A stretch of 64,000 nucleotides of DNA from Parcubacteria group bacterium (GCA_013204395.1 JABMNZ010000017.1:2490-66489), one strand, 5' to 3'; numbered from the stretch's first letter, positions 1 to 48,632 are shown. Numbers and translations are program-made. The notes: generated by a model not told the origin, from the letters alone.

Positions 1-498
1 ACGCAAGCTGAACAAATATCAGGAATGACTGTTCGTTTTTGGATAGGGATACAGGATCATCTACTTTACAGGATCCAGGGGGCCGGTGCGTTCATTCAAG
101 AGGAGACAAACGACTTGATGCCAGTTGATATCCGTGTTGATTTTTCAGATCACAACCAAGTTGTAGAGATTAATGAGCCTCAAGGAACAACGGCATTCAC
201 TCAGATTCTTACGGATGCCTTTGGTGGTTTACCTGAGGCTGGTGCAAGTTCGTTTGGATCATCGGGGAAAGCAACTAGCGTTTCACTTTCCTCAACGGCC
301 AAACTTCCGGTGACTCAAGTGGAAGTGACAAACGATCCTGATAACGATGGCCTTGATAACTTGCTTGAAAGGTTTTATGGAACGGATATGAATAATCCTG
401 ATACAGATGGTGACGGGATGACTGATGGTGAGGAGGTTCGTTCTGGTATGAATCCACGAGGAAAAGGTTCTTTATTCAGTTTTGGATTAGGTTTTTAA
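1..498 (+). CDS. Partial (5'-truncated) secreted protein with thrombospondin type-3-like Ca-binding repeats
   Basis: The frame is open from window position 1. DxDxDG-type repeats are present: NDPDNDGLDNLLERFYGTDMNNPDTDGDGMTDGEEV. Confidence 0.5.
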   Translation, partial: TQAEQISGMTVRFWIGIQDHLLYRIQGAGAFIQEETNDLMPVDIRVDFSDHNQVVEINEPQGTTAFTQILTDAFGGLPEAGASSFGSSGKATSVSLSSTAKLPVTQVEVTNDPDNDGLDNLLERFYGTDMNNPDTDGDGMTDGEEVRSGMNPRGKGSLFSFGLGF

Positions 499-536
499 CT
501 ATGGCAGGAGGATGGCGACAATCCAAACGAGGGGAC

Positions 537-2264
537 ATGGATGGCCGTCTATTATTTTTTCGTTACGCGATATTTTTGTTTGCAGGGGTGATTATTTTGA
601 AACTCATTTTTATTCAGGGTATCCAACATGGCCTGTACGAGGCACTCGCCAGCGGTCAGCATGAGCTCTATCAGGAGCTCATTCCCGACCGGGGAGTTAT
701 TTATGTCCACGACATGAAAGATGAGACTCTCGTGCCTGTGGCAACCAATCGCAAACTTTCATTTATTTACGCAGATCCTCGACTTGTTGACGAGCCAGGT
801 GATACGGCTGAGGCCTTGGGGGAGCTGTTTGGGTACGATGCCACGTCAACGGCAAGACTTGAAGAAAGACTTGATCAGCCAGAGGACCCGTATGAACCAA
901 TCGAACGTGATGTGGATGAGGACATGCTCGCAAGAATCCTTGAGCTTAATTTGCCAGGCGTTGCCTATATCAGAGAAGCCTCGCGTTTTTACCCTGAACC
1001 AGAGATGAGTGGACATGTGATCGGATTTGTTGGAACCAATGAGGACGGGAGTGAGTCTGGTAGATATGGTGTTGAGGGATACTTCAATGAACTTTTAACG
1101 GGGACTCAAGGAAGTCTGCTTTCAGAGCGAGACATCGCTGGAAGGTTGATAGCGGTGGCAGATCAGTTTTTAGAGCCGGCTGTTGATGGTGCTGATATCG
1201 TTTTGACGATTGATAGAACCATTCAGTATCAAGCCTGTAGCACCCTGAAAAAGGCCGTGGCCAAACATGGTGCAGATGGCGGTTCCGTTGTCATTGTTGA
1301 TCCACAGACCGGAAAGATTCTTGGTATGTGTGGGGCTCCAGATTACGATCCGAATATTTATAATAAAGTTGATTCGATTAGGATTTTTAATAATCCAGCT
1401 ATTTTTCAGGCCTATGAGCCTGGGTCAATTTTTAAACCTATAACCATGGCGGCGGCTGTGGATGCTGGTGCTGTGACACCAACAACAACATTTACAGATA
1501 CAGGAACGGCGATGGTAGATGGGTGGCCAAGGCCAATTGGAAACGCAGAGGGAAAAGTTTATGGGCTTGTAGATATGACAAAAGTTTTGGAAGATTCCAT
1601 TAACACTGGAATGATTTTTTCTATGCGAGCTACTGGCATGGATACTTTTGTGGAGTATGTTAAAGCGTTCGGGTTTGGAGAGTTGACCGGAATTGAGTTG
1701 GAGACGGAGGTTACGGGAACGATTGATTCGCTAGATATTGGTTCAGAGATTTACGCCGCAACAGCTTCCTTCGGCCAAGGAATCACAGTAACACCACTTC
1801 AGATAGCTATGGCTTATGCCGCTATAGCAAATGGTGGAGTGCTCAAGAGACCGCAAATTATTGATGAGATTCGTCACAGTGACGGAACGGTTGAAGAGAG
1901 ACCAAGTGTAGACATTTCCCAGGTGATTGATCCCAAGACGGCTCGTACCCTCTCTGCTATGCTTGTCTCAGTGATTGAGCACGGGCATGGTAAGCACGCG
2001 GGTGTGCCTGGATATTATATCGCCGGGAAGACTGGTACGGCTCAGGTGGCTAGGGCTGAAAGTCTTGGGTATGACGAAGACAACACCATTGGTTCATTTG
2101 CAGGGTTTGGGCCTGTTGAGGATCCAAAGTTCGCCATGGTGGTCCGGATCGATAATCCAAAAGATGTCGTATGGGCGGAGTCTACCGCCGCACCACTGTT
2201 TGGTGAGCTGGCTGAGTTTCTTTTACAGTATTTTGAAGTTCCCCCCGTACGGGCAATTGAATGA
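537..2264 (+). CDS. Penicillin-binding protein 2/FtsI-type peptidoglycan D,D-transpeptidase
   Basis: N-terminal TM segment, then SxxK (GSIFKP), SxN (SINTG) and KTG (AGKTGTAQV) motifs. The ATG at 537 has a GAGGGG Shine-Dalgarno; the ORF is open from 501. Confidence 0.85.
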   Translation: MDGRLLFFRYAIFLFAGVIILKLIFIQGIQHGLYEALASGQHELYQELIPDRGVIYVHDMKDETLVPVATNRKLSFIYADPRLVDEPGDTAEALGELFGYDATSTARLEERLDQPEDPYEPIERDVDEDMLARILELNLPGVAYIREASRFYPEPEMSGHVIGFVGTNEDGSESGRYGVEGYFNELLTGTQGSLLSERDIAGRLIAVADQFLEPAVDGADIVLTIDRTIQYQACSTLKKAVAKHGADGGSVVIVDPQTGKILGMCGAPDYDPNIYNKVDSIRIFNNPAIFQAYEPGSIFKPITMAAAVDAGAVTPTTTFTDTGTAMVDGWPRPIGNAEGKVYGLVDMTKVLEDSINTGMIFSMRATGMDTFVEYVKAFGFGELTGIELETEVTGTIDSLDIGSEIYAATASFGQGITVTPLQIAMAYAAIANGGVLKRPQIIDEIRHSDGTVEERPSVDISQVIDPKTARTLSAMLVSVIEHGHGKHAGVPGYYIAGKTGTAQVARAESLGYDEDNTIGSFAGFGPVEDPKFAMVVRIDNPKDVVWAESTAAPLFGELAEFLLQYFEVPPVRAIE

Positions 2265-2971
2265 ATTTATTCTCTCTCAAAGAGGTCTCTCGAGACTATT
2301 TGAATGGCGAGGTTGTAACGAGCGCATTGCGTGGGGTTTCTGTTGAAGTTAAGAAAGGGGAGTTTTTAGCCATCATGGGGCCGTCTGGATCAGGGAAGTC
2401 AACGCTGATGCACATACTTGGTTTCCTGGATTCACACACAGGAGGCACGTATCTATTTGATGGCAGGGATGTGGCTGGAATGACTGATGATGAACTAGCA
2501 AAACTTAGACAGGATCAAGTTGGCTTTGTCTTCCAGGCGTTTAACTTGTTGTCTAAGTCTACGGTGGCGCAGAATGTCATGCTGCCACTTGTCTATGGTG
2601 GGCTTACGGTTAAGGAGCGCCACACCCGTGCGGATAACGCGATCAGTGCCGTCGGGATGGAACATCGACGCAATCACTACTCCAATCAGCTCTCTGGCGG
2701 TGAAAAGCAGCGAGTGGCCATTGCTCGCGCCTTGGTGAACAACCCGTCGGTTATTTTTGCTGATGAACCAACGGGTAATCTGGATACAAAAACAGGAACA
2801 CAAATTCTTGATTTGCTAGCTGAGCTTCATGACGAAGGGCATACGATTGTGATGGTTACTCATGAGGAGGAGGCAGCTGAGTATGCTTCTCGTATTTTAA
2901 AACTCAGAGATGGAAAAATGGAATCAGATACACAAAATGTTAATAGACGTCGGGGAGGGTATAAAAAGTAG
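2261..2971 (+). CDS. ABC transporter ATP-binding protein (FtsE/LolD/MacB family)
   Basis: Walker [13 protein letters not shown] signature [15 protein letters not shown], Walker [12 protein letters not shown]. The start overlaps the stop of the upstream PBP gene. Confidence 0.8.
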
Positions 2972-2973
2972 GT

Positions 2974-4209
2974 ATGCAATATCGTGATTTGTTTACAACA
3001 GCATCCGAATCTCTCTTGCGGACAAAGTCACGCTCACTTTTGACTATACTTGGAATTGTGATTGGAATCGGGGCGGTTATTTTAATGCTGTCTATTGGGC
3101 AAGGGGCAGAGAGATTTATTTTGAATCAAGTCGCAGACCTTGGAGCAGATTTGGTTTTTGTTGAGCCAGCAAGTGGAGATCCAACATCCGGACCACCAAA
3201 CCCATTCATTGAACAAACAGTCACATTAGATGATGTAACTGCAATGGAACGGTCTGGGCTTTTCTCTACAATCTCTGCAACTTTGTTGACCACACTTCCG
3301 GTCACTGTGGGGGAGATTAACGAGTTCACGCAACTTCAAGGAACTGATGAGAATTATTTAGATTTGTTTCCAGGAGATTTACAGTACGGGACTAACTTAG
3401 ACGAATCGGATGTTGAGGGGTATGCCAAAGTAGCTGTTATTGGTTCGGAGATCTCTGAAACATTTTTTGGAGATGCAGACCCGGTTGGCCAGAAAATTAA
3501 AATTAAATCGATGAGCTTCAGGGTTGTGGGGGTCATGGAGGAGCAGGGGTCGAGATTCTTTCAAAACTTAGATAAACAAATATCTATTCCGATAACAACC
3601 ATGCAACGCGATGTAATGGGTGTTGATTCAGTGGCTTGGATTACAGCTAGAGCCATTGGCGATGTGGATGAAGTTAAGGAAGAGTTCCGGTGGTTGATGC
3701 GTGACGCCCATGATCTTGATAACCCAGAAGGAGATCCAAGCAAAGACGATTTTTTCGTAAGCTCACAGGATGACGCCACAGAAATGGTTGGGGTAGTTGG
3801 TGGTGTGCTTACCGTGCTGTTGTCATCCATCGCAGCGATCTCTCTGCTGGTTGGTGGTATCGGTATCATGAACATTATGCTTGTGTCGGTTACAGAGCGC
3901 ACAAGAGAGATTGGTTTGCGTAAGGCTGTGGGCGCGACTTACAAAGAAATCATGCTTCAGTTTTTAGTCGAGAGTGTTTTGCTAACTCTCTTGGGTGGAC
4001 TACTTGGGGTCCTCGGTGGGGTTACAATTTCATATTTGGTTGGTTGGGTTTTGATTGAATATTTTGTTGCAGATTGGACGATTGTAATTCCACCAAACGC
4101 CATAGCCCTGGCGGCAATTGTTTCAACTATTGTTGGTTTAGTCTTTGGGATTTATCCAGCTCGTAACGCGGCAAGGTTGAATCCAATCGATGCACTGAGG
4201 TACGAATAG
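2974..4209 (+). CDS. ABC transporter permease, FtsX/MacB family with periplasmic domain
   Basis: N-terminal TM, a large extracytoplasmic domain, and a C-terminal FtsX-type three- to four-TM bundle (LLVGGIGIMNIMLVSVTERTREIGLRKAVGA). Confidence 0.75.
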   Translation: MQYRDLFTTASESLLRTKSRSLLTILGIVIGIGAVILMLSIGQGAERFILNQVADLGADLVFVEPASGDPTSGPPNPFIEQTVTLDDVTAMERSGLFSTISATLLTTLPVTVGEINEFTQLQGTDENYLDLFPGDLQYGTNLDESDVEGYAKVAVIGSEISETFFGDADPVGQKIKIKSMSFRVVGVMEEQGSRFFQNLDKQISIPITTMQRDVMGVDSVAWITARAIGDVDEVKEEFRWLMRDAHDLDNPEGDPSKDDFFVSSQDDATEMVGVVGGVLTVLLSSIAAISLLVGGIGIMNIMLVSVTERTREIGLRKAVGATYKEIMLQFLVESVLLTLLGGLLGVLGGVTISYLVGWVLIEYFVADWTIVIPPNAIALAAIVSTIVGLVFGIYPARNAARLNPIDALRYE

Positions 4210-4268
4210 TATCTTACGTCTAACACTACAAACATTTTTTTAATAATTTTCAAAAAACCCCCATTTTA

Positions 4269-4300
4269 CGGAAGCTAAGCTTCCGGCCAGTGGAGGTATT
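4269..4300 (+). terminator. Hairpin (ccggaagct-a-agcttccgg) followed by a T-rich tract, downstream of the ABC permease
   Basis: Perfect 9-bp inverted repeat at 4269-4286; the tight 1-nt loop makes this a weak terminator call. Confidence 0.3.
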
Positions 4301-4326
4301 TTTGTTGGGTGTTTTGTCTGTGGAGA

Positions 4327-4355
4327 TTGACAAATAGCACTTTCCGTGCTATTTT
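4327..4355 (+). promoter_or_regulatory. Sigma70-like promoter TTGACA-N17-TATTTT upstream of the GC-rich gene pair
   Basis: -35 TTGACA at 4327-4332 and -10 TATTTT at 4350-4355. AAGGAGG Shine-Dalgarno precedes the GTG start at 4389. Confidence 0.3.
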
Positions 4356-4388
4356 TGCTAGTCCGAAATTCGGAATAAGGAGGCTGCA

Positions 4389-5663
4389 GTGAAGCACCAA
4401 TTCGACGTGAATGGATGGCGATACGGAACAAGTCAGATCGAGGATCTGGCTGACCAGATCCGTGAGCGCGTCTCCGATGAGAATTTTCCCACCGACCAGG
4501 GGGGCAAGGTGTTTGGGCTTTCCATCGCGGACCCGCTCGCAAAGGACGCCTTCAGGGTTCCAAGGTGGATGCCTTTCACGGCACAGACCGATCCGTGTGG
4601 AAGCTGGATCTGGACCAACTCCACTTGGATGGTGCGTAGCAACGCAGCCGACGAGGATTGGGTTGGCCCAGGTGCCGGCGCTCACACGAGCATGACACGA
4701 GGACCGTCATACGTCGCCGAAGCTGCCCGAGAGCTTCTGGGTACCTGTGGTGGTGTTGTGCTTCAGGGCAAATCGGATGGTGTCGGTCTCGTTGTGGACT
4801 TTGGCTGGAGCGAGTTGCTTCAGCGCAATGTCCTGCGCGTCGCCATTGGTATGCCTTCGATGAGTGGTAGCGGACTCAGCTACACAAGCCCCACGTGGGA
4901 CAACGAGGCACGCGTTGGACTCTTCGACGCACACACCGGCGAAGCCATCGTCGATCTGAACACCAACTACTTCGATGTCCAGGCCGTGGTCCGTCCATTC
5001 GTGGACGTGATCGTGCCTCGGCTCATGGAGTGGAGAATCAAGTTCGGGCTTCAGTTCGAGCTCATTGGTTCTCTGAGGGAGGGTGTTGCGGACCTGGTTC
5101 AGGTCCGTCCTAGTCCTGGATCGATCCAGGGACAGGTGGTACAAGCACCTTCAGGCAAGGAACCTCTTGTCACAACCGGCATGGTGAACATGCCTGGCGA
5201 GGTGCTGGCCGAGGTGTACATGGTTCTGGACGGTCACGGTCGCAACCAAGACCCGTTGGAAGTCACGATTATGACTGGTCAAGCTGGACGTCGCATGCCT
5301 ACGGCTGAACATTGGGATCCACTCAAGGAAGCTCTCTGTGGCAAGATCGTCTTCTGGTTGCCGGGCGCACTCCAGAAGTACAGCGGTAGCCTGTTCCAGG
5401 CGGCCGGTGCGTGGCGTCTGGGAGCCGTGGCTCAGATTTCAGCGTGGGCCATTCTCACCAACTCTGCCCACGGGACGTCAACCAACTCGTACCTGAAAAG
5501 CGAGTTGTCCAGAGCCGCTTTTGAGGAAGCGAGGGCTGGTGGTCCACTTCTGTGCATTGGCCGAGAGCTCACAAGGTTGCTCAGACGTGAGTGCAAGGGC
5601 GAAACGCCTCCCGTGCTGCACATCGTCTCCGACGGCTTGGTCGGGCAGGTCTACCGAGGCTAG
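4389..5663 (+). CDS. Hypothetical protein (G+C-rich islet gene 1)
   Basis: 424-aa ORF with GTG start after AAGGAGG. Strong G/C third-position bias unlike the flanking DNA; no recognisable motifs. Confidence 0.55.
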   Translation: MKHQFDVNGWRYGTSQIEDLADQIRERVSDENFPTDQGGKVFGLSIADPLAKDAFRVPRWMPFTAQTDPCGSWIWTNSTWMVRSNAADEDWVGPGAGAHTSMTRGPSYVAEAARELLGTCGGVVLQGKSDGVGLVVDFGWSELLQRNVLRVAIGMPSMSGSGLSYTSPTWDNEARVGLFDAHTGEAIVDLNTNYFDVQAVVRPFVDVIVPRLMEWRIKFGLQFELIGSLREGVADLVQVRPSPGSIQGQVVQAPSGKEPLVTTGMVNMPGEVLAEVYMVLDGHGRNQDPLEVTIMTGQAGRRMPTAEHWDPLKEALCGKIVFWLPGALQKYSGSLFQAAGAWRLGAVAQISAWAILTNSAHGTSTNSYLKSELSRAAFEEARAGGPLLCIGRELTRLLRRECKGETPPVLHIVSDGLVGQVYRG

Positions 5664-5838
5664 CCCACACCAGGCATACACAGCAAACGCGGCTTTTACA
5701 GCCATCCGGCACCCATACGAGGGGTCGGTATTTTGTTTTACCCCCATTTAGGTTGACAAAACGCCTAAACTGGGCTATTATCGTGTCTTGGTTTGAGGCT
5801 TTTCTCATACTCAAGACATCACTTCAAAGGAGGCGTAC

Positions 5839-7710
5839 ATGAACCGCTTTGCCCTGATTCTGGCCCTTGTGGTCGCTGGTTGCAGTCCCCAGATCGAGGA
5901 CGGCCCGCCGTTGGATTCCACGGCGGTGACCGTGAACGTGAACAAGCAGGCCCCGGCCCCGACGTCGGCCCCGCGTCAGGTTCGCGAGCCGGAGATCAAC
6001 GAGGTCTTCTCGAACCCCGAGACGCTCGCTCAGTGGCACGACAGCATGGACGCGGAGATCACCTCCGTTGCCGCCGAGCCCGATCCCCGTGAGATGTTCG
6101 AGGCCATCGCAGCCACGTACACCATCTCCCTGTCCAACCTCGAGCCGTTGTTTGGGAGCAAGGACATCTGGGGGGCTGACTACAACCCCAACGATGAGTA
6201 CACGGATCCTGATCCGGATCCTGTCGCCGAGCTCGATACCCTCGAGCAGGCTGGGTACCTGGAGCGGCAGGACCAGAAGTGGCACGCCGCCCAGATCTAC
6301 ATCGCTCACGGCAACAACGCCGACGCCAACCGCTGCGCCAAGCTCCTCTTCGACGAAGGGAGCTACAAGGTCGCGGCCATGGTGGCTGTGATGACGGGCG
6401 ACATGGACATGATGACCGCGGCCACGACCAAGATGGTCGACGCCCGTTACGTCACCAAGGTCTACGACGTGGTTCGCTACGCGTACGACAACGACAAGAT
6501 CCAGGCCGGGCGACACATTGTCGACACTCACGGATACGACTTGGTCGATGTTCTGGGTGAACAGACAGTGGGTTACCTGGCTCGTACCAGTCAACCGGAC
6601 CTCCTCGCTCCGATCATTGAGTCTTCCCTCGCACTGAGCGGTGGGGACTCGTGGAATGCCGATCAGTACGGGTCCGGCAACCTGGCGGCCGGCATTGTGA
6701 CTCTGGGTCGAACCGATCCTGAGCAAGCACGAGCGTTCGCTGCTCGCTACATCAAGATCCCACACATCAACGTGATGCTGTTGTGGAAGTGTGGTGAGGG
6801 GTGCTACGTGAGCCCCCTGATTGGAACGCTGGAACTGTACCAGCTGATCAAGGGTGATCCTCAGCTCAAGCAGATCTATCTGGACCGCACTCGCGAGTTT
6901 GCACAGGAGGCCTTCCCAGCAATCCACGTGGATGGCGAGGAACGGCCGCGGACCAAGTCGGTCATCCACGGTGTGATCGAGTACGCAGAGTGGAACAACG
7001 GGGAGATGAACGAGAGCTACGTGTTCACCTACCTGATGGCCGTCAAGGCAACTGGCGACCAGGACCTGATCGCTCTGTGGACCGAGATGGTGAACGACTT
7101 CGGTCATCGTCAGGGAGACTACAGTGGCGGGCCCATGGCCTTCGAGCGAGAGATCGGTCGAGGGATCCTGGGTCTGTCCGTGAACCCCACGGCCCCGGAT
7201 CTGGACCTTTCCCAGCAGTACCTGCTCGCGCGTCTCACCGGTGCTTCGGCCCCGGATCTGAGCCCGCTCTGGGACGAGCCTCGTGACAGCAGGCGCTACT
7301 ACAGCCACGACCCACCCAACGCGTCGCTGACTTGGCTGCTCAACATGTTCCTGAATGGGAGTATGGATCAGAACGCACAGGCGGCACTCTTGGCTACGTA
7401 CGAGCTGGTGGCGGAGAACGAGTACAGCACTCCAACTCGGCTGCTGAGCAAGAAGTTCGAAGCAGCCATGAGCGCCCACTACGGCGTTCCGAACACGCTG
7501 AACGCTCTCATGATCAAGCCCGACCGGGCTTTCTACACGAACAAGATAGCTGTCGACGAACGACAGCGTCTGATGCTGCCACCCATCGACCTGTACCCGG
7601 TTACCGAGGACGATGTCCTCGAGATCATCGCGCCGCACCTGCTGCGCATGGAGACCGAGTTGCCGGTCGCACACGCACGCCACATGGCCGCGCATCCGCC
7701 GCGGCCCTGA
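5839..7710 (+). CDS. Hypothetical lipoprotein (G+C-rich islet gene 2)
   Basis: AAGGAGG Shine-Dalgarno, signal peptide with lipobox LVVAGC. The equally long minus-strand ORF 5824..7728 is a GC-shadow ORF. Confidence 0.6.
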   Translation: MNRFALILALVVAGCSPQIEDGPPLDSTAVTVNVNKQAPAPTSAPRQVREPEINEVFSNPETLAQWHDSMDAEITSVAAEPDPREMFEAIAATYTISLSNLEPLFGSKDIWGADYNPNDEYTDPDPDPVAELDTLEQAGYLERQDQKWHAAQIYIAHGNNADANRCAKLLFDEGSYKVAAMVAVMTGDMDMMTAATTKMVDARYVTKVYDVVRYAYDNDKIQAGRHIVDTHGYDLVDVLGEQTVGYLARTSQPDLLAPIIESSLALSGGDSWNADQYGSGNLAAGIVTLGRTDPEQARAFAARYIKIPHINVMLLWKCGEGCYVSPLIGTLELYQLIKGDPQLKQIYLDRTREFAQEAFPAIHVDGEERPRTKSVIHGVIEYAEWNNGEMNESYVFTYLMAVKATGDQDLIALWTEMVNDFGHRQGDYSGGPMAFEREIGRGILGLSVNPTAPDLDLSQQYLLARLTGASAPDLSPLWDEPRDSRRYYSHDPPNASLTWLLNMFLNGSMDQNAQAALLATYELVAENEYSTPTRLLSKKFEAAMSAHYGVPNTLNALMIKPDRAFYTNKIAVDERQRLMLPPIDLYPVTEDDVLEIIAPHLLRMETELPVAHARHMAAHPPRP

Positions 7711-7734
7711 AAAGACGGCGAGGTTCATCCTCGC

Positions 7735-7777
7735 GACCGATCATCCCCCTGGGGCGTGATCGGTCTTTTCTTTTTGG
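7735..7777 (+). terminator. Rho-independent terminator closing the GC-rich islet
   Basis: Stem gaccgatca/tgatcggtc with a 13-nt loop, followed by ttttctttttgg. Confidence 0.6.
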
Positions 7778-7887
7778 TGGTATTATAGGATTAGATTGTG
7801 TTTATCTAGAAAGATGCAACGTTTTGGCTCTGAGAGCGATATAGTTATTGCAAGGTCGAAACATGACTCTTTAGGCGGGGTCAAACT

Positions 7888-7921
7888 GGGCTCGTGGTAA
7901 ACCCCCGAATATCACGAGCCC
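7888..7921 (+). promoter_or_regulatory. 9-bp stem hairpin in the 5' leader of the ECF sigma gene
   Basis: gggctcgtg ... cacgagccc with a 16-nt loop, ending 15 nt before the ATG. Confidence 0.25.
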
Positions 7922-7936
7922 GTAATCTATGTCCTT

Positions 7937-8563
7937 ATGGAAAATGAATTGGAGGTGATTGCACATGCACAAAAAAACCCTGAGATGTTTGGTAGGTTGT
8001 ACGACACGTATTACCAACCCATCTTTGGGTTCATGTATAACCGCACGGGGAATGCTGAGGTTGCAAAGGATTTAACCAGTGAAACATTCTTTCAGGCGTT
8101 AAAAAATCTTCATAAGTACAAGCCAAGAGAGGGTGCCAAGTTTAAATCCTGGTTATTCTCAATAGGCGTGGCTCAGGTGGGGAATTACTATAGAAGTAGA
8201 TCTAAGGTGCTAGAGGTCACAACAGATGAAGCACCAGAGCTAGTGAGTAGAGATGAGTTTCGTCCGGATATTGCCTATAGGATGGGTGAGGACGCCGAAG
8301 AGCTTCATGCTCAGATTGAACAGCTCCATCAAGTCATGAAGCAACTAAACCAAAGACAACAAACCATACTTACATTGAGGTTCTTCTCTCACATGACTGT
8401 CCCTGAGATTTCTTTGACAATGGGAATGAAAGAGGGAACCATTAAGTCTCACATTCACAGAGCTATTAAAAAAATGCAGTCCCTCATGATAGGGGATACT
8501 GCTGTAGATCAAATACAAACGACAACTTCTCATTCTTATGAAACGCGAATCGCTCAAAATTGA
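7937..8563 (+). CDS. RNA polymerase sigma factor, ECF (sigma-70 group 4) family
   Basis: Region 2 (YYQPIFGFMYNRTGNAEVAKDLTSETF) and region 4 HTH (LRFFSHMTVPEISLTMGMKEGTIKSHIHRAIKKM). Confidence 0.85.
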   Translation: MENELEVIAHAQKNPEMFGRLYDTYYQPIFGFMYNRTGNAEVAKDLTSETFFQALKNLHKYKPREGAKFKSWLFSIGVAQVGNYYRSRSKVLEVTTDEAPELVSRDEFRPDIAYRMGEDAEELHAQIEQLHQVMKQLNQRQQTILTLRFFSHMTVPEISLTMGMKEGTIKSHIHRAIKKMQSLMIGDTAVDQIQTTTSHSYETRIAQN

Positions 8564-8969
8564 AGATCTCCTTGAACAAATGGGGAGCCAGGAACACCCC
8601 GGAGATCCTGCACATCGCTACGAGCTTCGTCGTAAACTTTTATGTTCACGTTTCTTTAATGGGTGTGATCGACAAGGACGTTGGGATCGGATGCTTACCT
8701 ACACAGCCCCTCTTTTGGCGGGAGGTATGATGGTCGGTGTTATGGTCGTATTTGCAACGTCATGGCCTCAAGGGGCTTTAGACTCAACAGGAACTATTTC
8801 TTCACACACCATGCCATCGGCCAGTATTGAGCTAGCTGATATTACCGTTGACGTGGGTGACTTTGTTTCAGATGTTCATGCCCCCGTTGTTCGTTTGGCA
8901 GATTTTAATACAAATCCACAGGTGCGATTTCTCCCACTTGCTAACAGGCAGATCGTAAGAACTCGTTAA
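8538..8969 (+). CDS. Putative anti-sigma factor (single-pass membrane protein)
   Basis: Overlaps the 3' end of the ECF sigma gene and has one TM helix (MMVGVMVVFATSW). Called by context only. Confidence 0.45.
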   Translation: MKRESLKIEDLLEQMGSQEHPGDPAHRYELRRKLLCSRFFNGCDRQGRWDRMLTYTAPLLAGGMMVGVMVVFATSWPQGALDSTGTISSHTMPSASIELADITVDVGDFVSDVHAPVVRLADFNTNPQVRFLPLANRQIVRTR

Positions 8970-8977
8970 TGGTAATA

Positions 8978-9005
8978 AAAACAGTCTTGGACTGTTTTTT
9001 GTTTT
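8978..9005. terminator. Bidirectional rho-independent terminator
   Basis: aaaacagtc-ttg-gactgtttt followed by T-runs. Confidence 0.5.
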
Positions 9006-9012
9006 AGTGGAG

Positions 9013-9042
9013 TTGCAAAGCTTTAGAGGGGTTTGGTATAAT
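9013..9042 (+). promoter_or_regulatory. Near-consensus sigma70 promoter (TTGCAA-N18-TATAAT) driving the candidate ncRNA
   Basis: -35 at 9013-9018, -10 TATAAT at 9037-9042. Confidence 0.45.
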
Positions 9043-9048
9043 CTAATT

Positions 9049-9289
9049 GCTCCACGGAACTAATTTGGGCAAACACTTGGCATTAGGCTTGGAACCACTA
9101 CTGCTTTGGCAGAGTGTGAGAGCCTCGCGGTTATCCCTTAGGGGACAAGTTATTCAGAACGTCATATCGGCATTGCTGAATTGAATGTATCTGAGGCGCG
9201 CTGTGCTACAGCACGGGGCCCGACTAGAACCAGCCAAATGTAGGGCTGTGGAGTGATAAAAATACCGAGCAATAGCTCAGTATTTTTTT
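9049..9289 (+). ncRNA. Candidate structured ncRNA of about 240 nt, class unresolved (SRP-RNA-like domain IV motif; 6S or other possible)
   Basis: No ORF of 60 aa or more in a 330-bp gap between convergent genes. It has its own promoter. The 5' end (AUUGCUCCAC) pairs with the 3' end (GUGGAG...GAGCAAU). The internal segment GGCCC-GACU-AGAACCAGCCAAAUG resembles the SRP RNA helix-8 AGCAGCCAAGG region. A T-run lies at 9281-9290. Confidence 0.35.
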
Positions 9290-9305
9290 ATTTGGTTTGT
9301 TGCAA

Positions 9306-9893
9306 TTATATCTTGTCCAAGACTCCTGCATCTAGCAGGGCTTGATGATGCTCAGGGAGATATCTAGCCATGTATTCGATTAGCTTCCCTCGAACACGCC
9401 TGGTATCAAGATCGATTGATTTCGCAAATGCGCTAATGCGATCGTTGGCTTCTTGCTGTTCTTCCATCGATTCAATAAGGAGCTCAATCTCTACAACTGC
9501 ATAACCAAAGTCACAGTTATCTAGATCTATTCTGAGCCCATCCCGAAGATAACTTCGACGAGTTTTTTCTATTTTTGCGAAAGGTTTGTACCCAGCGATC
9601 TCGATTTCTCTCGTTAAATCCATTCCAGGCAATCCAAGTTTGACCGCTATTGATAAATCATCCTCAAGTTCCACATGTGTACGTGAAGACACTTTAGAAT
9701 TCTTGTTCTGACCAATTTTTAGTTCCCACCGATCGTTACGAAGTCTGAGCCACAGACTTTCTAAACCGAGCGTGTAATCTTCTGTGTCATAGTACGTATC
9801 GATGTTTGTTTTTTCATAGTCGAACGTAGCTCCCTTGAGAAGTTTTTCTTCCTGCTCAGGATTTAACAGAAACTTTTGTTCAACTTCAATCAT
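9306..9893 (-). CDS. CYTH-domain protein (class IV adenylyl cyclase/triphosphatase fold)
   Basis: N-terminal EVEQKFLL matches the ExExK signature of CYTH domains; the length fits. Confidence 0.65.
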   Translation of the reverse strand: MIEVEQKFLLNPEQEEKLLKGATFDYEKTNIDTYYDTEDYTLGLESLWLRLRNDRWELKIGQNKNSKVSSRTHVELEDDLSIAVKLGLPGMDLTREIEIAGYKPFAKIEKTRRSYLRDGLRIDLDNCDFGYAVVEIELLIESMEEQQEANDRISAFAKSIDLDTRRVRGKLIEYMARYLPEHHQALLDAGVLDKI

Positions 9894-10116
9894 AGATCTC
9901 CTTTACTAGATGCCCTGTTATCGATACCCTTATGGTACTCATCCTAAGAAAAAAATCGGAATTTAACAACTATGGAAATGGAGCGTGATAAAATTCTTAA
10001 AGGTGCTATCACTATACAGTCTAGATGGTGTTGATGTGATTGTAAAAATGTAGAGCCGTTAGTCAAGTTTATTTCTTAACATTAGCTATTGTCGATCAAT
10101 GTAAAGTGGCGTATCT

Positions 10117-11088
10117 TTGCAGCGAAATAATATTATGCATTTAGCAATTTTAGTCTTTGAACAAGAGGACAATAATCTGCTACCAGGCACAAAGATGCTG
10201 GTTAAGCGGGCAAGGGCAAATAAACACACGGTGAGTGTTTTAAAGGAGCGAGAGGTCTATATTGTGTTTAATGACAATAAACATTCGCTTCATAAAAACG
10301 GAAAACCCATTAAGCATTTTGATGCCGTGATCGTCAGGCCTTCGTTCAAGTCTGATCCTTCCATTCACGCTTCTTTGATTAGACAGTTTGAATTGGAGGG
10401 TCAACTTGTGATCAATACACATTCGGCTGTTCATCGAGCAAAGAACAAGGTTAGAACTCTTCAGCTTTTACATCACTACGATATCCCGATGCCACGGACG
10501 GTAATTATTTTTGATAGTGACGTGTTGGATAAAGTGATGGGAGAGTTTAAATATCCAGTGGTGGTAAAATCCGCTTATGGGGCGGGAGGTTCGGGGGTAT
10601 TCATTGCAGAGACCAAGAGATCTCTCAAGCCGGTTGTTGAACATCTGCTTCGAAAGAGAGAGGGGGTTCGTGAGCCGATCAAGATTCAGGAATACATTGC
10701 AGAATCAAAAGGAAAAGACTTACGACTTTTTGTCGTCGGTAAACGAGTGGTTGCTACCATGCAACGTTCTGCACAAAAAGGAGATTTTCGATCAAACTTT
10801 CATAAGGGAGGATCGGTTAAGGGAGTCGAACCAACTGAGGAAGAACGAGAGATGGCTGTACGGGCGAGTTTGAACTTAGGGCTAGACGTTTCCGGAGTAG
10901 ACATTTTGCGAACAAAAAAAGGACCCGTCATAATTGAAATCAATTCGCAGCCGGGTCTAGAAGGAATTACACAGGCAACTGGTGTTGATGTTGCCGGTGA
11001 GATTGTAGAGTATGTGGAACGACGTGTTCGTCGACGGAAGAAAAAACTAAGAGAGGTTAAAGAAAGAAAGAAGGCTACTGAAGGTTAA
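10117..11088 (+). CDS. RimK-family ATP-grasp ligase
   Basis: ATP-grasp motifs YPVVVKSAYGAGGSGVFIAE and IQEYIAESKGKDLRLFVVG; C-terminal basic tail. Confidence 0.7.
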   Translation: MQRNNIMHLAILVFEQEDNNLLPGTKMLVKRARANKHTVSVLKEREVYIVFNDNKHSLHKNGKPIKHFDAVIVRPSFKSDPSIHASLIRQFELEGQLVINTHSAVHRAKNKVRTLQLLHHYDIPMPRTVIIFDSDVLDKVMGEFKYPVVVKSAYGAGGSGVFIAETKRSLKPVVEHLLRKREGVREPIKIQEYIAESKGKDLRLFVVGKRVVATMQRSAQKGDFRSNFHKGGSVKGVEPTEEEREMAVRASLNLGLDVSGVDILRTKKGPVIIEINSQPGLEGITQATGVDVAGEIVEYVERRVRRRKKKLREVKERKKATEG

Positions 11089-11585
11089 TGCGACTTCCTA
11101 CCAGAAAATCACAGAGTTTAAAGATCCCTCATGACGAGGGTCCTTTATATTTAACTCAGGGAGGCATTGAAAAATTGGAACGGAGACTTAAAAAGATTGA
11201 ATCATTAGAATTGCCAGAGGCTATTGAAGATGTGCGTAGGACTGGGGAATTCGGAGATTTTTCAGAAAATGCTGAGTATCAGGAAGCAAAGTGGCGCATG
11301 AGACGACTCCACAATTCAGTTTTGACCATTAAAGATAAACTAAAGCGTGCGGTATTAATTGAGACCGATAAGGGGGTGGGGGGTGTTCAAATTGGCTCAA
11401 CTGTGGTACTTCAGACAACACAGGGAGATCGTAAGACATTCGAAATAGTGGGTCCAAGTGAAACTGACCCAACCCGCGGACGTCTTTCGTACAGATCACC
11501 ACTTGGCGCAAGCTTGATGGGTCGCGAAGTTGGAGAGTCTGTTGAGGCCGCGTTAATTCACTATACTATCGTAGATATCACCTAG
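11088..11585 (+). CDS. greA: Transcription elongation factor GreA
   Basis: N-terminal coiled coil with acidic tip (EFGDFSENAEYQEAK) and a C-terminal FKBP-like domain. Confidence 0.85.
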   Translation: MRLPTRKSQSLKIPHDEGPLYLTQGGIEKLERRLKKIESLELPEAIEDVRRTGEFGDFSENAEYQEAKWRMRRLHNSVLTIKDKLKRAVLIETDKGVGGVQIGSTVVLQTTQGDRKTFEIVGPSETDPTRGRLSYRSPLGASLMGREVGESVEAALIHYTIVDIT

Positions 11586-11587
11586 CC

Positions 11588-12901
11588 GTGATACGATACA
11601 ACTACATGTCAAGACAAGAATTAGAAGATAAACAGTTTTATGGGCTCGGTATCGCGCCCACGTTACTAGAGCGTCTTGATTCGCTCGGTTTCGTTCACCC
11701 AACACCAATTCAGTACAAGGCCATTCCAATTGCGATGACAGGAGATGATGTTATTGGAATCGCACAAACGGGAACGGGTAAGACTCTTGCTTTTTCCATC
11801 CCACTTCTGCAACAGATTTCTGCAAAAGGAAAAACGGGATTAGTTTTAACGCCAACCCGCGAACTGGCAATTCAAGTAGAGGAAACACTCCGTAAACTTG
11901 CTTCTCCACTTGGACTTCGTACAGCTATCATTATTGGAGGTACTCCACAGCACAAGCAAGTGAAACAGCTAAAGGCACGACCACATGTAATTGTGGCAAC
12001 ACCTGGTCGTCTTATTGATCTCATGAATCAAAAGCATGTTCGACTAGAAAAAGTCGGCGTGCTCGTTTTAGATGAGGCTGATCGCATGCTGGATATGGGG
12101 TTTGCTCCACAGTTGAAAAAGGTCATGGCCATTGTCCCTGCAGATCGGCAGACACTTCTATTTTCAGCAACCATGCCTGAGGAGATTGCAAAGATTGCTC
12201 GCGAATTCATGAAGAAGCCTCTTCGTGTAGAGGTGGCTCCATCTGGAACGGCAGCAGAAAAGGTTGAGCAAGAAGTATATATCGTTCCTCGATCAGAGAA
12301 GATTGATCTACTAGAGAAAATATTGGAGGAGTATAAGGGAACCGTTTTGGTTTTTTCACGAACAAAGCATGGGGCAAAGAATTTGGCGGCAAAAGTTCGA
12401 CAAATGGGACACAGCTCCGCTGAGATTCACGGTAATCGTTCCCAGAACCAACGGCAGATTGCCCTTTCGGGATTCTCGTCAGGAAAATTCCGTGTCCTTA
12501 TTGCTACGGATATCGCGGCTCGTGGAATCGATGTAAAAAATATTGAACTTGTTGTGAACTTTGACCTTCCTGATCAGTTGGAAGATTATGTTCATCGTAT
12601 TGGCCGTACAGGACGAGCAGGATCTACTGGTAAAGCTATCTCGTTTGCCTCACCAGAACAGAAAAAGGATGTTCGTGCCATTGAAAGATTGATTAAAAAG
12701 CAGCTCCCAGTTCTTACAACTGAAGGAGAACCAGTAAAACGAGAGGCTGATACGGGAAAAGAGGAACGATACGGAAGCCCACGAAAACGAGGTGGATCAG
12801 GAGGAAATAGAGGGGGTCGAGGTGGACGAACTGGTGGTGGCTACTCGAAATCTGGATCAAGCGGAGGAGGTCAGCGTAAACGACCAGGAGGACGACGATA
12901 A
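11588..12901 (+). CDS. DEAD-box ATP-dependent RNA helicase with RGG-rich C-terminal tail
   Basis: Q motif, AQTGTGKT, DEAD, SAT and HRIGRTGRAG motifs; Gly/Arg-rich tail. Confidence 0.85.
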   Translation: MIRYNYMSRQELEDKQFYGLGIAPTLLERLDSLGFVHPTPIQYKAIPIAMTGDDVIGIAQTGTGKTLAFSIPLLQQISAKGKTGLVLTPTRELAIQVEETLRKLASPLGLRTAIIIGGTPQHKQVKQLKARPHVIVATPGRLIDLMNQKHVRLEKVGVLVLDEADRMLDMGFAPQLKKVMAIVPADRQTLLFSATMPEEIAKIAREFMKKPLRVEVAPSGTAAEKVEQEVYIVPRSEKIDLLEKILEEYKGTVLVFSRTKHGAKNLAAKVRQMGHSSAEIHGNRSQNQRQIALSGFSSGKFRVLIATDIAARGIDVKNIELVVNFDLPDQLEDYVHRIGRTGRAGSTGKAISFASPEQKKDVRAIERLIKKQLPVLTTEGEPVKREADTGKEERYGSPRKRGGSGGNRGGRGGRTGGGYSKSGSSGGGQRKRPGGRR

Positions 12902-13655: not shown

Positions 13656-13993
13656 AGCGGCAGGTGCTGATCCATTTGAGATTCTAGCTTTCCGTACACA
13701 TTTTTATTCTGATACGCAGTCCAAGCGGCACCCTCAAGGGGGCCGTTTTTTGGTCGGTCGTCTACATTGAGTGCAATTACACGCTTGTCACTGATATTGA
13801 ATTGCTGTCTAAGAGAATCTTCAACTTCTGGATGCACGGTCACAATCACATCTGCCAGATCAATTTTATCTTGAACCTCTTTTTGATCTTGAAGCACACC
13901 TCCTGTTTGGATGCTGTAACCTTTGTTTTCTAGGTACTTTTGTAGATGAACACTACGGTTCATGCCAAAATGGCAGAGAATTAATACATGCAT
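13652..13993 (-). CDS. Low-molecular-weight phosphotyrosine phosphatase/ArsC-like protein
   Basis: P-loop C-X5-R-S (LCHFGMNRS) near the N-terminus, typical of the LMW-PTP family. Confidence 0.55.
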   Translation of the reverse strand: MHVLILCHFGMNRSVHLQKYLENKGYSIQTGGVLQDQKEVQDKIDLADVIVTVHPEVEDSLRQQFNISDKRVIALNVDDRPKNGPLEGAAWTAYQNKNVYGKLESQMDQHLPL

Positions 13994-14052
13994 ATGGGTA
14001 AGTATATCAGAGCTTGACTTGGTAGGCTCATTAACCTAACCTCCGGACGTCG

Positions 14053-15570
14053 TTGAGCAATTCGATGCGACTGTGGAGGTGTACGATGGCCGACTTTCGG
14101 CAACTTGTGACGGGTGAATCTGTGCACGATTGGATCGCCCGACGCGTCGGGGAGATTCTCTCGGGTGCGGGAACAGCATTTGAGTGCGTGGCCGCGGTGG
14201 GCATGGACCCTGAGTTGACCAGTGTCTACTTCGAGGTGAGTGAAACACGCCCCAAGGGTGATGTTCAGCTTCTCTCGGGTGGAGCAGGTCTCTCGGTCAG
14301 CTTGGGCAAAGATCCCAGCAAGCTCTTTCCCGAGGACATCATCAGCCTGTTTGGTGGCGTGACCCTCAAGGATCAGGCGCTGGACTGCAAGCAAGTGGTC
14401 TTTCGGCTGCCGCTGCAGCACATCGATCCGCAGTTCGCCGCCATGGGGGTGCAAGGGGCACTTCTTCGTGGGGATGAACTGCAGACCAAGGTCACGAACC
14501 TCGGAATCGAAAGGGTCATCTTCTTCGCAGAAGAGGATCAGTTCCCGGCGATCGAGAAGGGGTTGGAACTCGCGCGCGCAGCCAACGTCAGTCGCTGGCT
14601 GAGCGCCATGCCCCCGAACCTTCTCAACGTGACGGCTTTTGCAACCTTGGTTGCCAGCCGCTTCGCAGAGATGGGTTTGGAGGTCTTTGCACCCAGCGCG
14701 GACGAGTACACCAAGATGGGTCTGCTCAAGGGTGTGGCTGCCGGCAACGGTGGGCACTTCCGCGTGCTGGCCGTGCGTATTGATCCGCTCAGCGAACCGA
14801 CCGAGAAGGTGATCGCCTACGTGGGCAAGACGCTGGTATTCGATGCCGGCGGCTTGAACATCAAGGGGGCACACGCACGTGGCATGAAGGGTGACATGGG
14901 TGGAGGTGCCAGCATCTTCGGCTCGGCCAGCTACCTGGCACAACACCGTGAGCTCCTCACGCGTTCGGTGGTTTTTGTCTGGACTATCACCGAGAACGTG
15001 ATTGGGCCCGACGCCTACCGACCTGACGACGTCCTCACCGCCTTCAACGGGGTGACGGTCGAGATCGACAACACGGATGCAGAAGGACGCTTGGCTCTGG
15101 CTGACGCCATGGCCTGGATCTGCACGAAGGTGGAGGTGACGCAGTTGGTGCCGGTGTGTACCCTCACAGGAGCGGCAGTGGTCGCCTTCGGGTCCGCGGC
15201 GTCTGCCCTGCACTTGAAGGACAGCCGTCGCCGTCTGGATGAAGTCGGCCGCTTGGAACGTCTCTCCTTTGACTCTGGTGACTCGGTGAACATCATCCAT
15301 CATCACCCGCACGCTGCGGCAATCCTTGCGTCGCACATCGCCGACATCAAGAACGCTGGTGGAGGCAACAAGAACGGTGGCTCCTCACAGGGCTTCGCCT
15401 TCCTCCTGAACTTCGCACCCAACGGTGTGGACGTCATGGAGCTGGACATTGCCGGCAAGGCGGGTCTCGACTTCGCGGGAGGAAACGGCCTGCAGGCTGG
15501 AACGAGTCTTCCGGCTGCCGTCTGGTTCGTCATCGCGATCGAGGGCACTTACGAGGTACCCGTCCAGTAG
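14053..15570 (+). CDS. M17 leucyl aminopeptidase family protein (G+C-rich islet gene 3, second copy)
   Basis: M17 signature NTDAEGRL plus VFDAGGLNIKG and GDMGGGA metal-binding motifs. Strong GC3 bias; the minus-strand 451-aa ORF is a shadow. Confidence 0.75.
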   Translation: MSNSMRLWRCTMADFRQLVTGESVHDWIARRVGEILSGAGTAFECVAAVGMDPELTSVYFEVSETRPKGDVQLLSGGAGLSVSLGKDPSKLFPEDIISLFGGVTLKDQALDCKQVVFRLPLQHIDPQFAAMGVQGALLRGDELQTKVTNLGIERVIFFAEEDQFPAIEKGLELARAANVSRWLSAMPPNLLNVTAFATLVASRFAEMGLEVFAPSADEYTKMGLLKGVAAGNGGHFRVLAVRIDPLSEPTEKVIAYVGKTLVFDAGGLNIKGAHARGMKGDMGGGASIFGSASYLAQHRELLTRSVVFVWTITENVIGPDAYRPDDVLTAFNGVTVEIDNTDAEGRLALADAMAWICTKVEVTQLVPVCTLTGAAVVAFGSAASALHLKDSRRRLDEVGRLERLSFDSGDSVNIIHHHPHAAAILASHIADIKNAGGGNKNGGSSQGFAFLLNFAPNGVDVMELDIAGKAGLDFAGGNGLQAGTSLPAAVWFVIAIEGTYEVPVQ

Positions 15571-15590
15571 ACACGAGCCCATTCGGGCAT

Positions 15591-15620
15591 CCCACTTTGC
15601 ATCCGTGCAAGTGGGTTTTT
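15591..15620 (+). terminator. Rho-independent terminator
   Basis: cccacttTgca-tccg-tgcaagtggg followed by ttttt. Confidence 0.5.
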
Positions 15621-15684
15621 AATTTGTCTTCAGCTGAGTCATCTAATCAATGAAGTCTTTTCGATTGCGAGATTCTCACGTATA

Positions 15685-16452
15685 GTGCTTTTATCTATGA
15701 CATTCATTTACATACTCGTAACCACGTTAGTGATATCCCTCCTATCTCTTGTTGGGATTCTAAGCTTGGTGATTTTTAAAAAACACTTTCATGAGGGCCT
15801 GTTAACACTGGTAGCTCTTTCAGCGGGAGCCATGCTTGGAAACGCTTTTTTTCATCTTCTACCCGAGGCGTTGGAACTAACAGAGTCAGGGCCTGTTGAT
15901 GTGTTCGGGGTGATGTTGCTTGTGGTGGGATCGTTTGTTGTTTCATTTTTGTTCGAGCAATTTTTTTCATGGCACCATTGTCATAACTCTGAGACCTGTG
16001 AGGTAGCAGAAAAGCCCTACGCACATCTTGTTCTCTACTCAGATGGCTTGCATAACTTTATTGATGGACTTGTTATCGCCGCTGCTTACATGGTCACCCC
16101 CGCTCTGGGGCTTAGCACAGCTATTGCCATTGCCTTACATGAGGTCCCTCAGGAGCTTGGGGATTACGCCGTTTTAGTTCACGGTGGGTTTTCCAAAGCA
16201 AGGGCAGCTCTTCTTAACTGGGTTACATCGTTGACGGTTGTTGCCGGTGGTATTGTTGGCTACTTTCTTGTGGGTCAAGTGGATTGGGCTGTACCCGTAC
16301 TTCTTCCAATCGCCGCTGGTGGATTTTTGTATATTGCCGCAGCAGACTTACTTCCAGAGCTGAAGCACAGTGAGAATCCAACGAAGATTCCTCTCCACAT
16401 CCTGGTCTTTCTTACAGGACTTGCGATCATGATAGTCTCAGCCTTAATTTAG
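15685..16452 (+). CDS. ZIP-family divalent metal (zinc) transporter
   Basis: Multi-TM protein with the HEVPQELGDYAVL signature (HExPxExGD). Confidence 0.8.
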   Translation: MLLSMTFIYILVTTLVISLLSLVGILSLVIFKKHFHEGLLTLVALSAGAMLGNAFFHLLPEALELTESGPVDVFGVMLLVVGSFVVSFLFEQFFSWHHCHNSETCEVAEKPYAHLVLYSDGLHNFIDGLVIAAAYMVTPALGLSTAIAIALHEVPQELGDYAVLVHGGFSKARAALLNWVTSLTVVAGGIVGYFLVGQVDWAVPVLLPIAAGGFLYIAAADLLPELKHSENPTKIPLHILVFLTGLAIMIVSALI

Positions 16453-31255: not shown

Positions 31256-31286
31256 ACTTTTTTTTTGTTATCCACAGCCCGAGAAT

Positions 31287-31311
31287 ACCGCTAAGAACAG
31301 CGGTTTTTTTA
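31287..31311 (+). terminator. Rho-independent terminator
   Basis: accgct-aagaac-agcggt followed by ttttttt. Confidence 0.55.
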
Positions 31312-31323
31312 TTATCCATCTGC

Positions 31324-32667: not shown

Positions 32668-32670
32668 ACT

Positions 32671-35330: not shown

Positions 35331-35383
35331 CAACCTACCTAAAATGTAGGGCCTAGACTTACCCCACCGTAGCGGTATGTTGT

Positions 35384-36679: not shown

Positions 36680-36778
36680 AAACAGCTTGTTTTAGAGGTA
36701 TGGTGGTTGACAGAAGTCCATTTTTCTGCTACATTTAGCCGTTGTTCTTTACTATCTATCAAGTTCCAATATCTCTTG

Positions 36779-36822: not shown

Positions 36823-36902
36823 TAATGAACAAAGGCAGGTTTCCGTGAGCGCATAGGGTGCGAACGGTGGCTAGTCGGAGTTGGCACAAGGAGGCAGGTC
36901 TT

Positions 36903-48618: not shown

Positions 48619-48632
48619 TTGCTAGAGTTTAT

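Follow-up and report, generated by a model that had tools for sequence, protein, structure and literature searches.

GC-rich single-gene islets in a low-GC Parcubacteria genome: probably ancient foreign genes, apparently kept GC-rich within their coding regions

Bacterial genes whose base composition departs from that of the surrounding genome are known from several systems. Phage morons are independent promoter-gene-terminator units of deviant GC, and enterobacterial O-antigen and capsule loci are multi-gene regions of atypically low GC at a fixed site, where many alleles are exchanged via flanking homologous recombination. Known GC-favouring effects in bacteria are genome-wide and shift the GC content of third codon positions (GC3) modestly. 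Atypical genomic islands ('alien genes') are usually read with the amelioration model of Lawrence and Ochman, and atypical GC is routinely taken as a sign of recent horizontal gene transfer (HGT), on which both HGT-detection tools and amelioration clocks rely. Here we describe five GC-rich islets, each the size of one gene, in a 64,000-nucleotide stretch of low-GC DNA from a Parcubacteria group bacterium (GCA_013204395.1, JABMNZ010000017.1:2490-66489; hereafter the window). Our favoured reading, to which we give a probability of about 0.55, is that these are ancient foreign genes, now vertically inherited and kept GC-rich by a GC-favouring force limited to their coding sequences (CDSs). The islets are as follows.

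4389-5663, + strand: islet 1, predicted ATP-grasp-fold protein; GC 0.590, GC3 0.66
5839-7710, + strand: islet 2, lipoprotein; GC 0.615, GC3 0.80
14086-15570, + strand: islet 3, M17-like peptidase; GC 0.609, GC3 0.74; reading frame open from TTG at 14053
36903-37730, + strand: islet 4, target protein of a diversity-generating retroelement (DGR); GC 0.655, GC3 0.84; reading frame open from GTG at 36858
43705-44832 (open to 44874), - strand: islet 5, predicted ribose-phosphate pyrophosphokinase-like (Prs-like) protein; GC 0.590, GC3 0.63; likely start ATG at 44832

The islets resemble alien-gene islands in being gene-scale segments with GC and codon usage far from those of the host, and islet 4 is part of a phage-derived element that has a serine recombinase and adjoins a tRNA gene. 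Unlike such islands, islets 1, 2, 3 and 5 are not bordered by any mobility gene, repeat or tRNA that we could find, and islets 2, 3 and 5 are syntenic across species. The amelioration model is also at odds with the composition of the M17-like gene, which is unrelaxed at near-saturated synonymous sites, as is, less securely, that of the lipoprotein gene. Persistence of atypical GC at a fixed site has its closest parallel in the O-antigen and capsule loci, and the lipoprotein likewise outpaces its flanks in divergence; the islets, however, are single-gene, GC-rich rather than AT-rich, and include cytoplasmic-type enzymes, and no allele pool was found for them. As with phage morons, the islets look monocistronic, with a promoter-like site (islets 1, 2 and 4), a strong Shine-Dalgarno (SD) site, a likely terminator (islet 2) and deviant GC. 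In contrast to morons, only islet 4 sits in phage-derived DNA, the others being chromosomal and, for islets 2, 3 and 5, conserved among species.

A preliminary description of the window had held the islets to be gene-sized and precisely bounded, and this is borne out by five outlier open reading frames (ORFs) in which composition changes at most tens of bases from either end of the CDS. The native ORFs (n = 57) have a GC of 0.443 (sd 0.025, range 0.36-0.49) and a GC3 of 0.409 (sd 0.054, maximum 0.54), against which the islets stand at z = 5.8-8.4 for GC and 4.2-8.0 for GC3, with zero overlap between the distributions. The same description had placed the background at roughly 40% and the islets at 60-70%; the strong contrast stands, but the background is 44% and the islets span 59-65.5%, while its two spot values are exact (0.72 at 37621-37680 and 0.38 at 10141-10200). 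It had also spoken of five loci while listing four ranges: in a 500-nt sliding profile, four blocks at 0.55-0.65 rise over a background of ~0.44, and per-ORF statistics resolve them into five genes, since 4389-7710 holds two. Together the islets make up ~10% of the window sequence. GC rises within 30-60 nt of the start codon and falls within ~60 nt past the stop, and the promoter and untranslated DNA around the islets has native GC. Third-position A is very low (A3 0.04-0.16), T3 is depleted too, four-fold codon boxes move to C and G in general with CGT and GGT kept, and amino-acid composition is shifted to the GARP residues (glycine, alanine, arginine, proline).

Because A is nearly absent at sense third positions, long antisense 'shadow' ORFs accompany the islets, and those reported earlier are present as open frames at islets 2-5 (5824-7728, - strand, 634 aa; 13981-15336, - strand, 451 aa; 36822-37346, - strand; 43778-44467, + strand). 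The 634-aa frame antisense to islet 2 is called as a gene by the JGI gene caller. We reject these frames as real genes or dual coding: it is the sense strand that has the lipobox, the Pfam domains and the GC3 pattern, and the antisense frames, with GC1 of 0.72-0.79 and unconserved four-fold sites, argue against antisense coding.

The evidence that carries the favoured reading comes from relatives in which islets 2, 3 and 5 recur at the same chromosomal positions. Among GTDB genomes that share the gene order, the closest is 'Candidatus Uhrbacteria bacterium BH28', where, at locus L004, the M17-like gene stands in the same order RimK-GreA-DEAD-SpoU-M17-...-Zip. Its amino-acid identity with the window copy is 69-71%, and that of 13 flanking orthologues 63-89%. 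The L004 gene has GC 0.66 and GC3 0.91 against flanks of 0.50, and its four-fold sites are still at 0.91 GC. M17-like orthologues form GC-rich islets in L004/L008, L009, L010, L153 and L154; among the six lineages with readable flanks (window included), pairwise amino-acid identity is 41-71%, gene GC 0.60-0.67, GC3 0.71-0.91 and flank GC 0.39-0.54, and in other phyla the GC gap between an M17 gene and its flanks does not exceed 0.08. Identity at four-fold sites is at or near chance (e.g. 0.34 vs 0.33), and equal to chance for most pairs.

The Prs-like gene is found in the order MetK - Prs-like - DUF2914 in the window, in L149 (BH28) and in L150 (GCA_041294345.1), and is GC-rich in all three. 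Amino-acid identities among these three genomes are 0.67/0.60/0.67 for Prs-like, 0.78/0.72/0.74 for MetK, 0.77/0.62/0.65 for DUF2914 and 0.66/0.61/0.60 for VKOR. In the window, L151/L152 and the contig of P0255, a relative at 29% identity, the lipoprotein gene lies between genes for a MacB permease and an ECF sigma factor. Its L151/L152 orthologue is 45% identical (GC 0.65, GC3 0.86, flanks ~0.51) and diverges faster than its neighbours, which are at 62-87%. Across 40 orthologue pairs, native GC3 is 0.40±0.04 in the window and 0.50±0.05 in the relatives (r = 0.25), and the three islets included are outliers in both (0.64-0.80 and 0.66-0.91, respectively). The preliminary description had proposed individual horizontal acquisitions from high-GC donors. 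A foreign, high-GC ultimate origin is plausible, but discrete, datable events in this genome are not seen, and recent individual transfers are contradicted by the conserved synteny and GC-richness of islets 2, 3 and 5 and by the divergence of the M17-like and Prs-like genes, which is like that of their neighbours.

A donor lineage, for which Actinobacteria had been suggested, did not emerge for the M17-like or lipoprotein genes from 5.8 billion proteins, the genomes of 185,579 GTDB species and plasmids. The protein set yielded 12 close relatives of the M17-like protein and 6 of the lipoprotein (the latter family counting 6 members there), none of them in a high-GC context, and relatives with readable flanks lie in low-GC contigs; on plasmids, the M17-like protein has no match above 36% identity. 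Set against what a recent island should look like, composition deviates as expected (z 4.2-8.4 over GC and GC3), and the syntenic site lacks islet 1 in L151 and, at the level of its element, islet 4 in L149, but the sites of islets 2, 3 and 5 are occupied. For islets 2, 3 and 5, no donor of matching composition was found, the Prs-like sister clade in high-GC contigs being only ~40% identical, and border mobility features are confined to the element of islet 4.

Whether the GC-richness is residual was addressed by an amelioration test, in which the autocorrelation of strong (G or C) and weak (A or T) states at four-fold sites of conserved residues is treated as a two-state chain, so that the native autocorrelation also serves as the decay factor expected for any excess in composition along the same path. 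In native orthologues this factor is 0.13 (confidence interval, CI, 0.06-0.20). Starting from an ancestor with 100% GC at four-fold sites, the M17-like gene would need a retention of at least 0.47, and its own autocorrelation is 0.12 (CI 0-0.25), which rejects passive decay. The lipoprotein gene would need at least 0.39 with an autocorrelation of its own of 0.20 (CI 0.03-0.36), which rejects passive decay against the native interval and marginally against its own. For the Prs-like gene, a retention of 0.07-0.11 would do (own autocorrelation 0.11, CI -0.06 to 0.26), which is compatible with passive decay. Since the retention needed exceeds that measured, the GC-richness of the M17-like gene appears stationary rather than residual, as does, with less certainty, that of the lipoprotein gene.

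From synteny and divergence we infer the vertical descent of islets 2, 3 and 5, and from the amelioration test the existence of a GC-maintaining force; an ancient foreign, high-GC origin of the islets is probable. Under the favoured reading, the islet genes would have been foreign and high-GC at first entry, long ago, and islets 2, 3 and 5 would afterwards have been inherited vertically at fixed chromosomal positions. Synonymous turnover in the M17-like gene (less securely in the lipoprotein gene) would have been about that of the neighbours, its sites staying 70-90% G/C while neighbouring genes drifted to 35-50%. The GC-favouring force would act on the coding region only, because the boundaries at CDS ends are sharp, the promoters have native GC and so do the two genes next to the DGR target, for the reverse transcriptase (RT) and Avd. 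It might be selection on the composition or codon class of the CDS, perhaps linked to expression, or GC-biased gene conversion. Both kinds of force are in print for bacteria: Lassalle et al. (2015, PMC4450053) treat biased gene conversion, and Kelkar et al. (2015, PMC4478552), following earlier work, selection in favour of GC-rich genes. Like these published forces, the one that our data require would bias the fixation of synonymous changes towards G/C, counteracting AT-biased mutation, but the islet effect would amount to +0.3 to +0.45 GC3, be restricted to single CDSs and be stable over deep divergence. A literature search turned up no account of single genes staying GC-rich in the candidate phyla radiation (CPR).

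Several points weigh against this reading. Simple translational selection of highly expressed genes is unsupported as the force, the cold-shock protein gene having a GC3 of 0.49 and the dnaK region of L005 a GC of only 0.40-0.48. No uptake or recombination motif is shared across the islets above codon-shuffle expectation. Vertical descent is read from synteny and comparable divergence, and the conservation evidence covers islets 2, 3 and 5. The amelioration test uses a clock-like model and small samples (117-202 four-fold sites per islet pair), and the retention needed by the lipoprotein gene (at least 0.39) is barely above its own upper bound of 0.36. The Prs-like gene passes the test as neutrally ameliorating (0.07-0.11 vs 0.13), so slow decay suffices there, and its family includes both a fully ameliorated clade and a clade from high-GC genomes. 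Islets 1, 4 and 5 may simply have been transferred long ago, or on a mobile element, and not yet have ameliorated fully.

A second reading, which we regard as possible though somewhat less probable than the first, is that the clade keeps two stable compositional classes of genes, a monocistronic minority being held at ~60-68% GC by a CDS-only force. This minority would include the genes for the M17-like peptidase, surface lipoproteins, the Prs-like protein and the DGR target, among others. Such a force would outlast speciation and 15-point swings in background GC, and might operate through a translational programme based on codon class, with G/C-ending codons read by a different tRNA subset, or through gene-targeted GC-biased conversion. 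Relatives contain further single-gene GC-rich islets (L004 15920-17257; L151 2831-3541 and 9366-9818; L150 19794-20981; L149 7564-8220), which encode a DAO/Mqo-type oxidoreductase (L004), a 150-aa lipoprotein at the islet 1 site (L151) and hypothetical proteins, so that the GC-rich class seems to make up ~10% of the genes in the clade, with some turnover.

We consider it unlikely that the islets are explained by recurrent replacement, in which high-GC sources not yet sampled, for instance a host bacterium, Patescibacteria of a high-GC clade or extrachromosomal elements, would supply fresh alleles and so keep the chromosomal copies young and never ameliorated. Such a process would be akin to that at O-antigen and capsule loci. 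Gene turnover in keeping with it is seen: L151 lacks islet 1 and has another GC-rich lipoprotein ORF, of 150 aa, at the site, and the DAO/Mqo islet of L004 is absent from the window's MsrA-rhodanese position, where the two ORFs are adjacent. The lipoprotein (45%) is far more diverged than its neighbours (62-87%), and one Prs-like clade resides in high-GC, non-CPR-looking contigs. HGT in Patescibacteria is frequent and, per a published survey, mostly intra-phylum (PMC12455944). Yet neither the M17-like nor the lipoprotein family turned up in a high-GC context in proteins, GTDB genomes or plasmids, all six M17-like loci with readable flanks (6/6) are islets in low-GC DNA, and the divergence of the M17-like and Prs-like proteins tracks that of native neighbours across three to four genomes. 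Moreover, a same-site swap that preserved native-GC promoters would need flanking homology, which a distant high-GC donor lacks.

Slow neutral amelioration, still incomplete, after ancient one-off transfers into a common ancestor is just as doubtful as a general account. In effect it moves the proposal of the preliminary description to an earlier date. It fits the Prs-like gene quantitatively, and the tree of that family shows its stages, with two islet clades, a fully ameliorated clade (L074/L078, gene GC 0.40-0.42) and a clade in high-GC contigs, the last ~40% identical, flanked by genes for cytochrome c and a citrate-lyase-like aldolase and apparently non-CPR. The lower GC3 of the M17-like gene in the window (0.74) than in L004 (0.91) looks like decay, and GARP-shifted amino acids are what a long stay in a high-GC genome would leave. 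However, the retention needed by the M17-like (at least 0.47) and lipoprotein (at least 0.39) genes exceeds both the native value of 0.13 (CI up to 0.20) and their own intervals, which top out at 0.25 and, marginally, 0.36. The L004 M17-like gene, still at 0.91 GC at four-fold sites, and the six lineages that retain GC3 of 0.71-0.91 down to 41% amino-acid identity and chance-level four-fold identity are likewise hard to reconcile with decay, and the background GC itself shifted between 0.39 and 0.54 over the same span.

Last, the joining of another organism's high-GC reads into a low-GC contig at assembly or binning can be dismissed, as the preliminary description had argued: although the sample is metagenomic and one JGI contig ends at ~37601, inside islet 4, the same junctions occur at 99.995-100% identity under three accessions (a JGI metagenome, the NCBI MAG and a Logan run), the breakpoints coincide with start and stop codons beside native promoters and SD sites, orthologous islets lie in the same synteny in other species, and the break at 37601 falls at the start of the DGR variable repeat, a hypervariable site where assembly is expected to break. 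Positions 1-12209 of the window are 100% identical to a 40-kb JGI contig, 9525-30772 are 99.995% identical to it, and a Logan contig from another run accession crosses the 3' junction of islet 3. Islet 2 corresponds to NCBI HQ488_03255, and islet 3 falls in a cluster holding HQ488_03300 ('Parcubacteria group bacterium'); exact look-ups of the islet 2 and DGR RT proteins returned no record. On these matches and the gene order shared with BH28, the host is a Parcubacteria, Uhrbacteria-like metagenome-assembled genome (MAG). The loci L009 (CAYNRK010000002.1) and L010 (CAYFME010000016.1) are titled 'uncultured Gammaproteobacteria', yet in L010, as in the window, SpoU (51% identical between the two) and a DEAD helicase are encoded nearby; both records may be misclassified.

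The gene content given in the preliminary description (two unknown proteins, one a lipoprotein, a second M17 aminopeptidase, the DGR target and a Prs-like gene) agrees with ours, to which a candidate fold can be added for islet 1. The islet 1 protein (424 aa; family of 91 representatives) has no Pfam, NCBIfam or PDB sequence match. Its AlphaFold2 (AF2) model (pLDDT 86.6) retrieves D-Ala-D-Ala ligases (Ddl), SucC and rifampin phosphotransferase in Foldseek at probability 1.0 and E ~1e-6, with TM only ~0.3. On this model, and since the gene is missing from the syntenic site in L151, islet 1 is predicted to be an accessory gene for an ATP-grasp-fold protein. Islet 2 encodes a 623-aa lipoprotein with the lipobox LVVAGC; its AF2 model is an all-alpha solenoid (pLDDT 74), for which the fold search gave generic alpha-solenoid matches and no significant match in PDB.

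The islet 3 protein (494 aa) matches the M17 catalytic domain (PF00883, 206 bits), with no PF02789, the M17 N-terminal domain, in the Pfam scan. It falls short of every NCBIfam leucyl aminopeptidase cut-off, the best score reaching 205 where 432 would be needed. K248, D253, K260, D270, D331, E333 and R335 are invariant in the family and are presumably the counterparts of the metal and catalytic residues of bovine leucine aminopeptidase (LAP). The canonical PepA of the window, at 57053-58546, has both M17 domains and native GC. The M17-like gene adjoins a Zip-family zinc transporter gene in the window (14086-16452), in L004 (10001-13677) and in L005/L009 (10001-12456, rearranged in L009), a neighbourhood in three lineages that suggests a functional link for a metal-dependent peptidase.

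Islet 5 would encode a divergent Prs-like protein. It scores 97.6 bits against TIGR01251 (cut-off 113), is far under the cut-off of every equivalog, passes its Pfam domains narrowly (29.3 vs 27 and 27.6 vs 25) and is only ~33% identical to canonical Prs proteins; the ~50 members of its family are Patescibacteria wherever a source name is given. A C8 tract (G8 on the + strand, 44785-44792) puts a 46-aa N-terminal extension (MTGLPFGRDG...KRWKRPP), with an upstream ATG near 44922, out of frame, while P0121 (96% identical, 405 aa) has both parts fused in frame. The tract could be a phase-variable slipped-strand switch, a strain difference or a sequencing error.

Islet 4 encodes a 275-aa protein for which Pfam, PHROG, PDB, phage records and viral contigs gave no relative. 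Its 3' end and the genes that follow make up the DGR.

37592-37724, + strand: variable repeat (VR), 133 nt at the 3' end of islet 4, 86% identical to the template repeat
38161-38293, + strand: template repeat (TR)
38340-38714, - strand: accessory gene bAvd (PF22296, 59 bits), native GC 0.45
38734-39735, + strand: RT gene (PF00078, 80 bits), native GC 0.44

All mismatches between VR and TR (18/18) fall at TR adenines, in codon positions 1 and 2. This adenine pattern, together with the adjacent RT and Avd genes, confirms the DGR at the level of sequence, and the retroelement looks active. DGR cassettes are usually co-oriented. The locus resembles known DGRs in that VR and TR differ at TR adenines only and the bAvd and RT genes are adjacent, but bAvd is on the strand opposite to target, TR and RT, and the target lies 21 GC points above the RT and Avd genes of its own cassette. 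Related DGR loci found via the RT have no clear contrast in GC between target and RT. We also rejected DGR-like adenine mutagenesis as a source of GC-richness in the islets: T3 is depleted as well as A3, and the islets show no consistent AT skew. The JGI contig Ga0335110_1621624 ends at ~37601, by coordinate arithmetic at most ~10 nt from the VR start at 37592, which is consistent with hypervariability of the VR in the population breaking the assembly.

The DGR belongs to a phage-derived element (~30656-41950) that also contains a ParB-methyltransferase, a second methyltransferase, terS, terL and the serine recombinase, with no capsid or tail genes recognised; its genes other than islet 4 have native GC. 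The element adjoins a tRNA-Asn gene (42257-42331) and DUF2914. BH28 has a different serine-recombinase element on the same DUF2914 side (L149 13029-17400), which suggests an integration hotspot there. At the right edge of the element, between a DUF4352 gene and the tRNA-Asn, an Rfam LOOT RNA (RF03000) match lies at 41809-41935 on the - strand (53.2 bits, above the gathering score).

Native-looking expression signals around the islets, as previously reported, are present before islets 1, 2 and 4 and after islet 2.

4327-4355, + strand: promoter-like TTGACA-17-TATTTT 5' of islet 1, a consensus match only; AAGGAGG at 4377-4383
5753-5781, + strand: promoter-like TTGACA-17-TATTAT (11/12) 5' of islet 2; AAGGAGG at 5827-5833
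7735-7777, + strand: hairpin GACCGATCA...TGATCGGTC followed by a T-run, read by eye, likely intrinsic terminator of islet 2
36707-36735, + strand: promoter-like TTGACA-17-TACATT 5' of islet 4; AAGGAGG at 36888-36894

A simple terminator scan missed the hairpin because its loop exceeds 8 nt. Five gene-proximal promoter-like matches in the window score 10/12 or better, and islets 1, 2 and 4 lie behind three of them, the cold-shock protein gene and a CYTH gene behind the other two. Each islet is apparently its own transcription unit, and the sigma-70-like promoter matches before three of them, the best in the window, hint at a link with expression. Elsewhere in the window, 46500-49000 has a strong positive GC skew (0.24-0.47) and covers a DM13-domain protein and a 436-aa ORF (46715-48025) with a TTG start and no Pfam match.

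If the favoured reading holds, composition does not mark recency in this lineage, and composition-based HGT calls and ages would be wrong. Were the clade instead to keep two compositional classes of genes, GC-richness would be the mark of a functional gene class rather than of recent transfer. The islets suggest that base composition in ultra-small, AT-drifting bacteria is subject to a force, so far unexplained, that is specific to certain genes, and, with their native neighbours serving as within-genome controls, they bear on whether selection or biased gene conversion is the keeper of prokaryotic GC.

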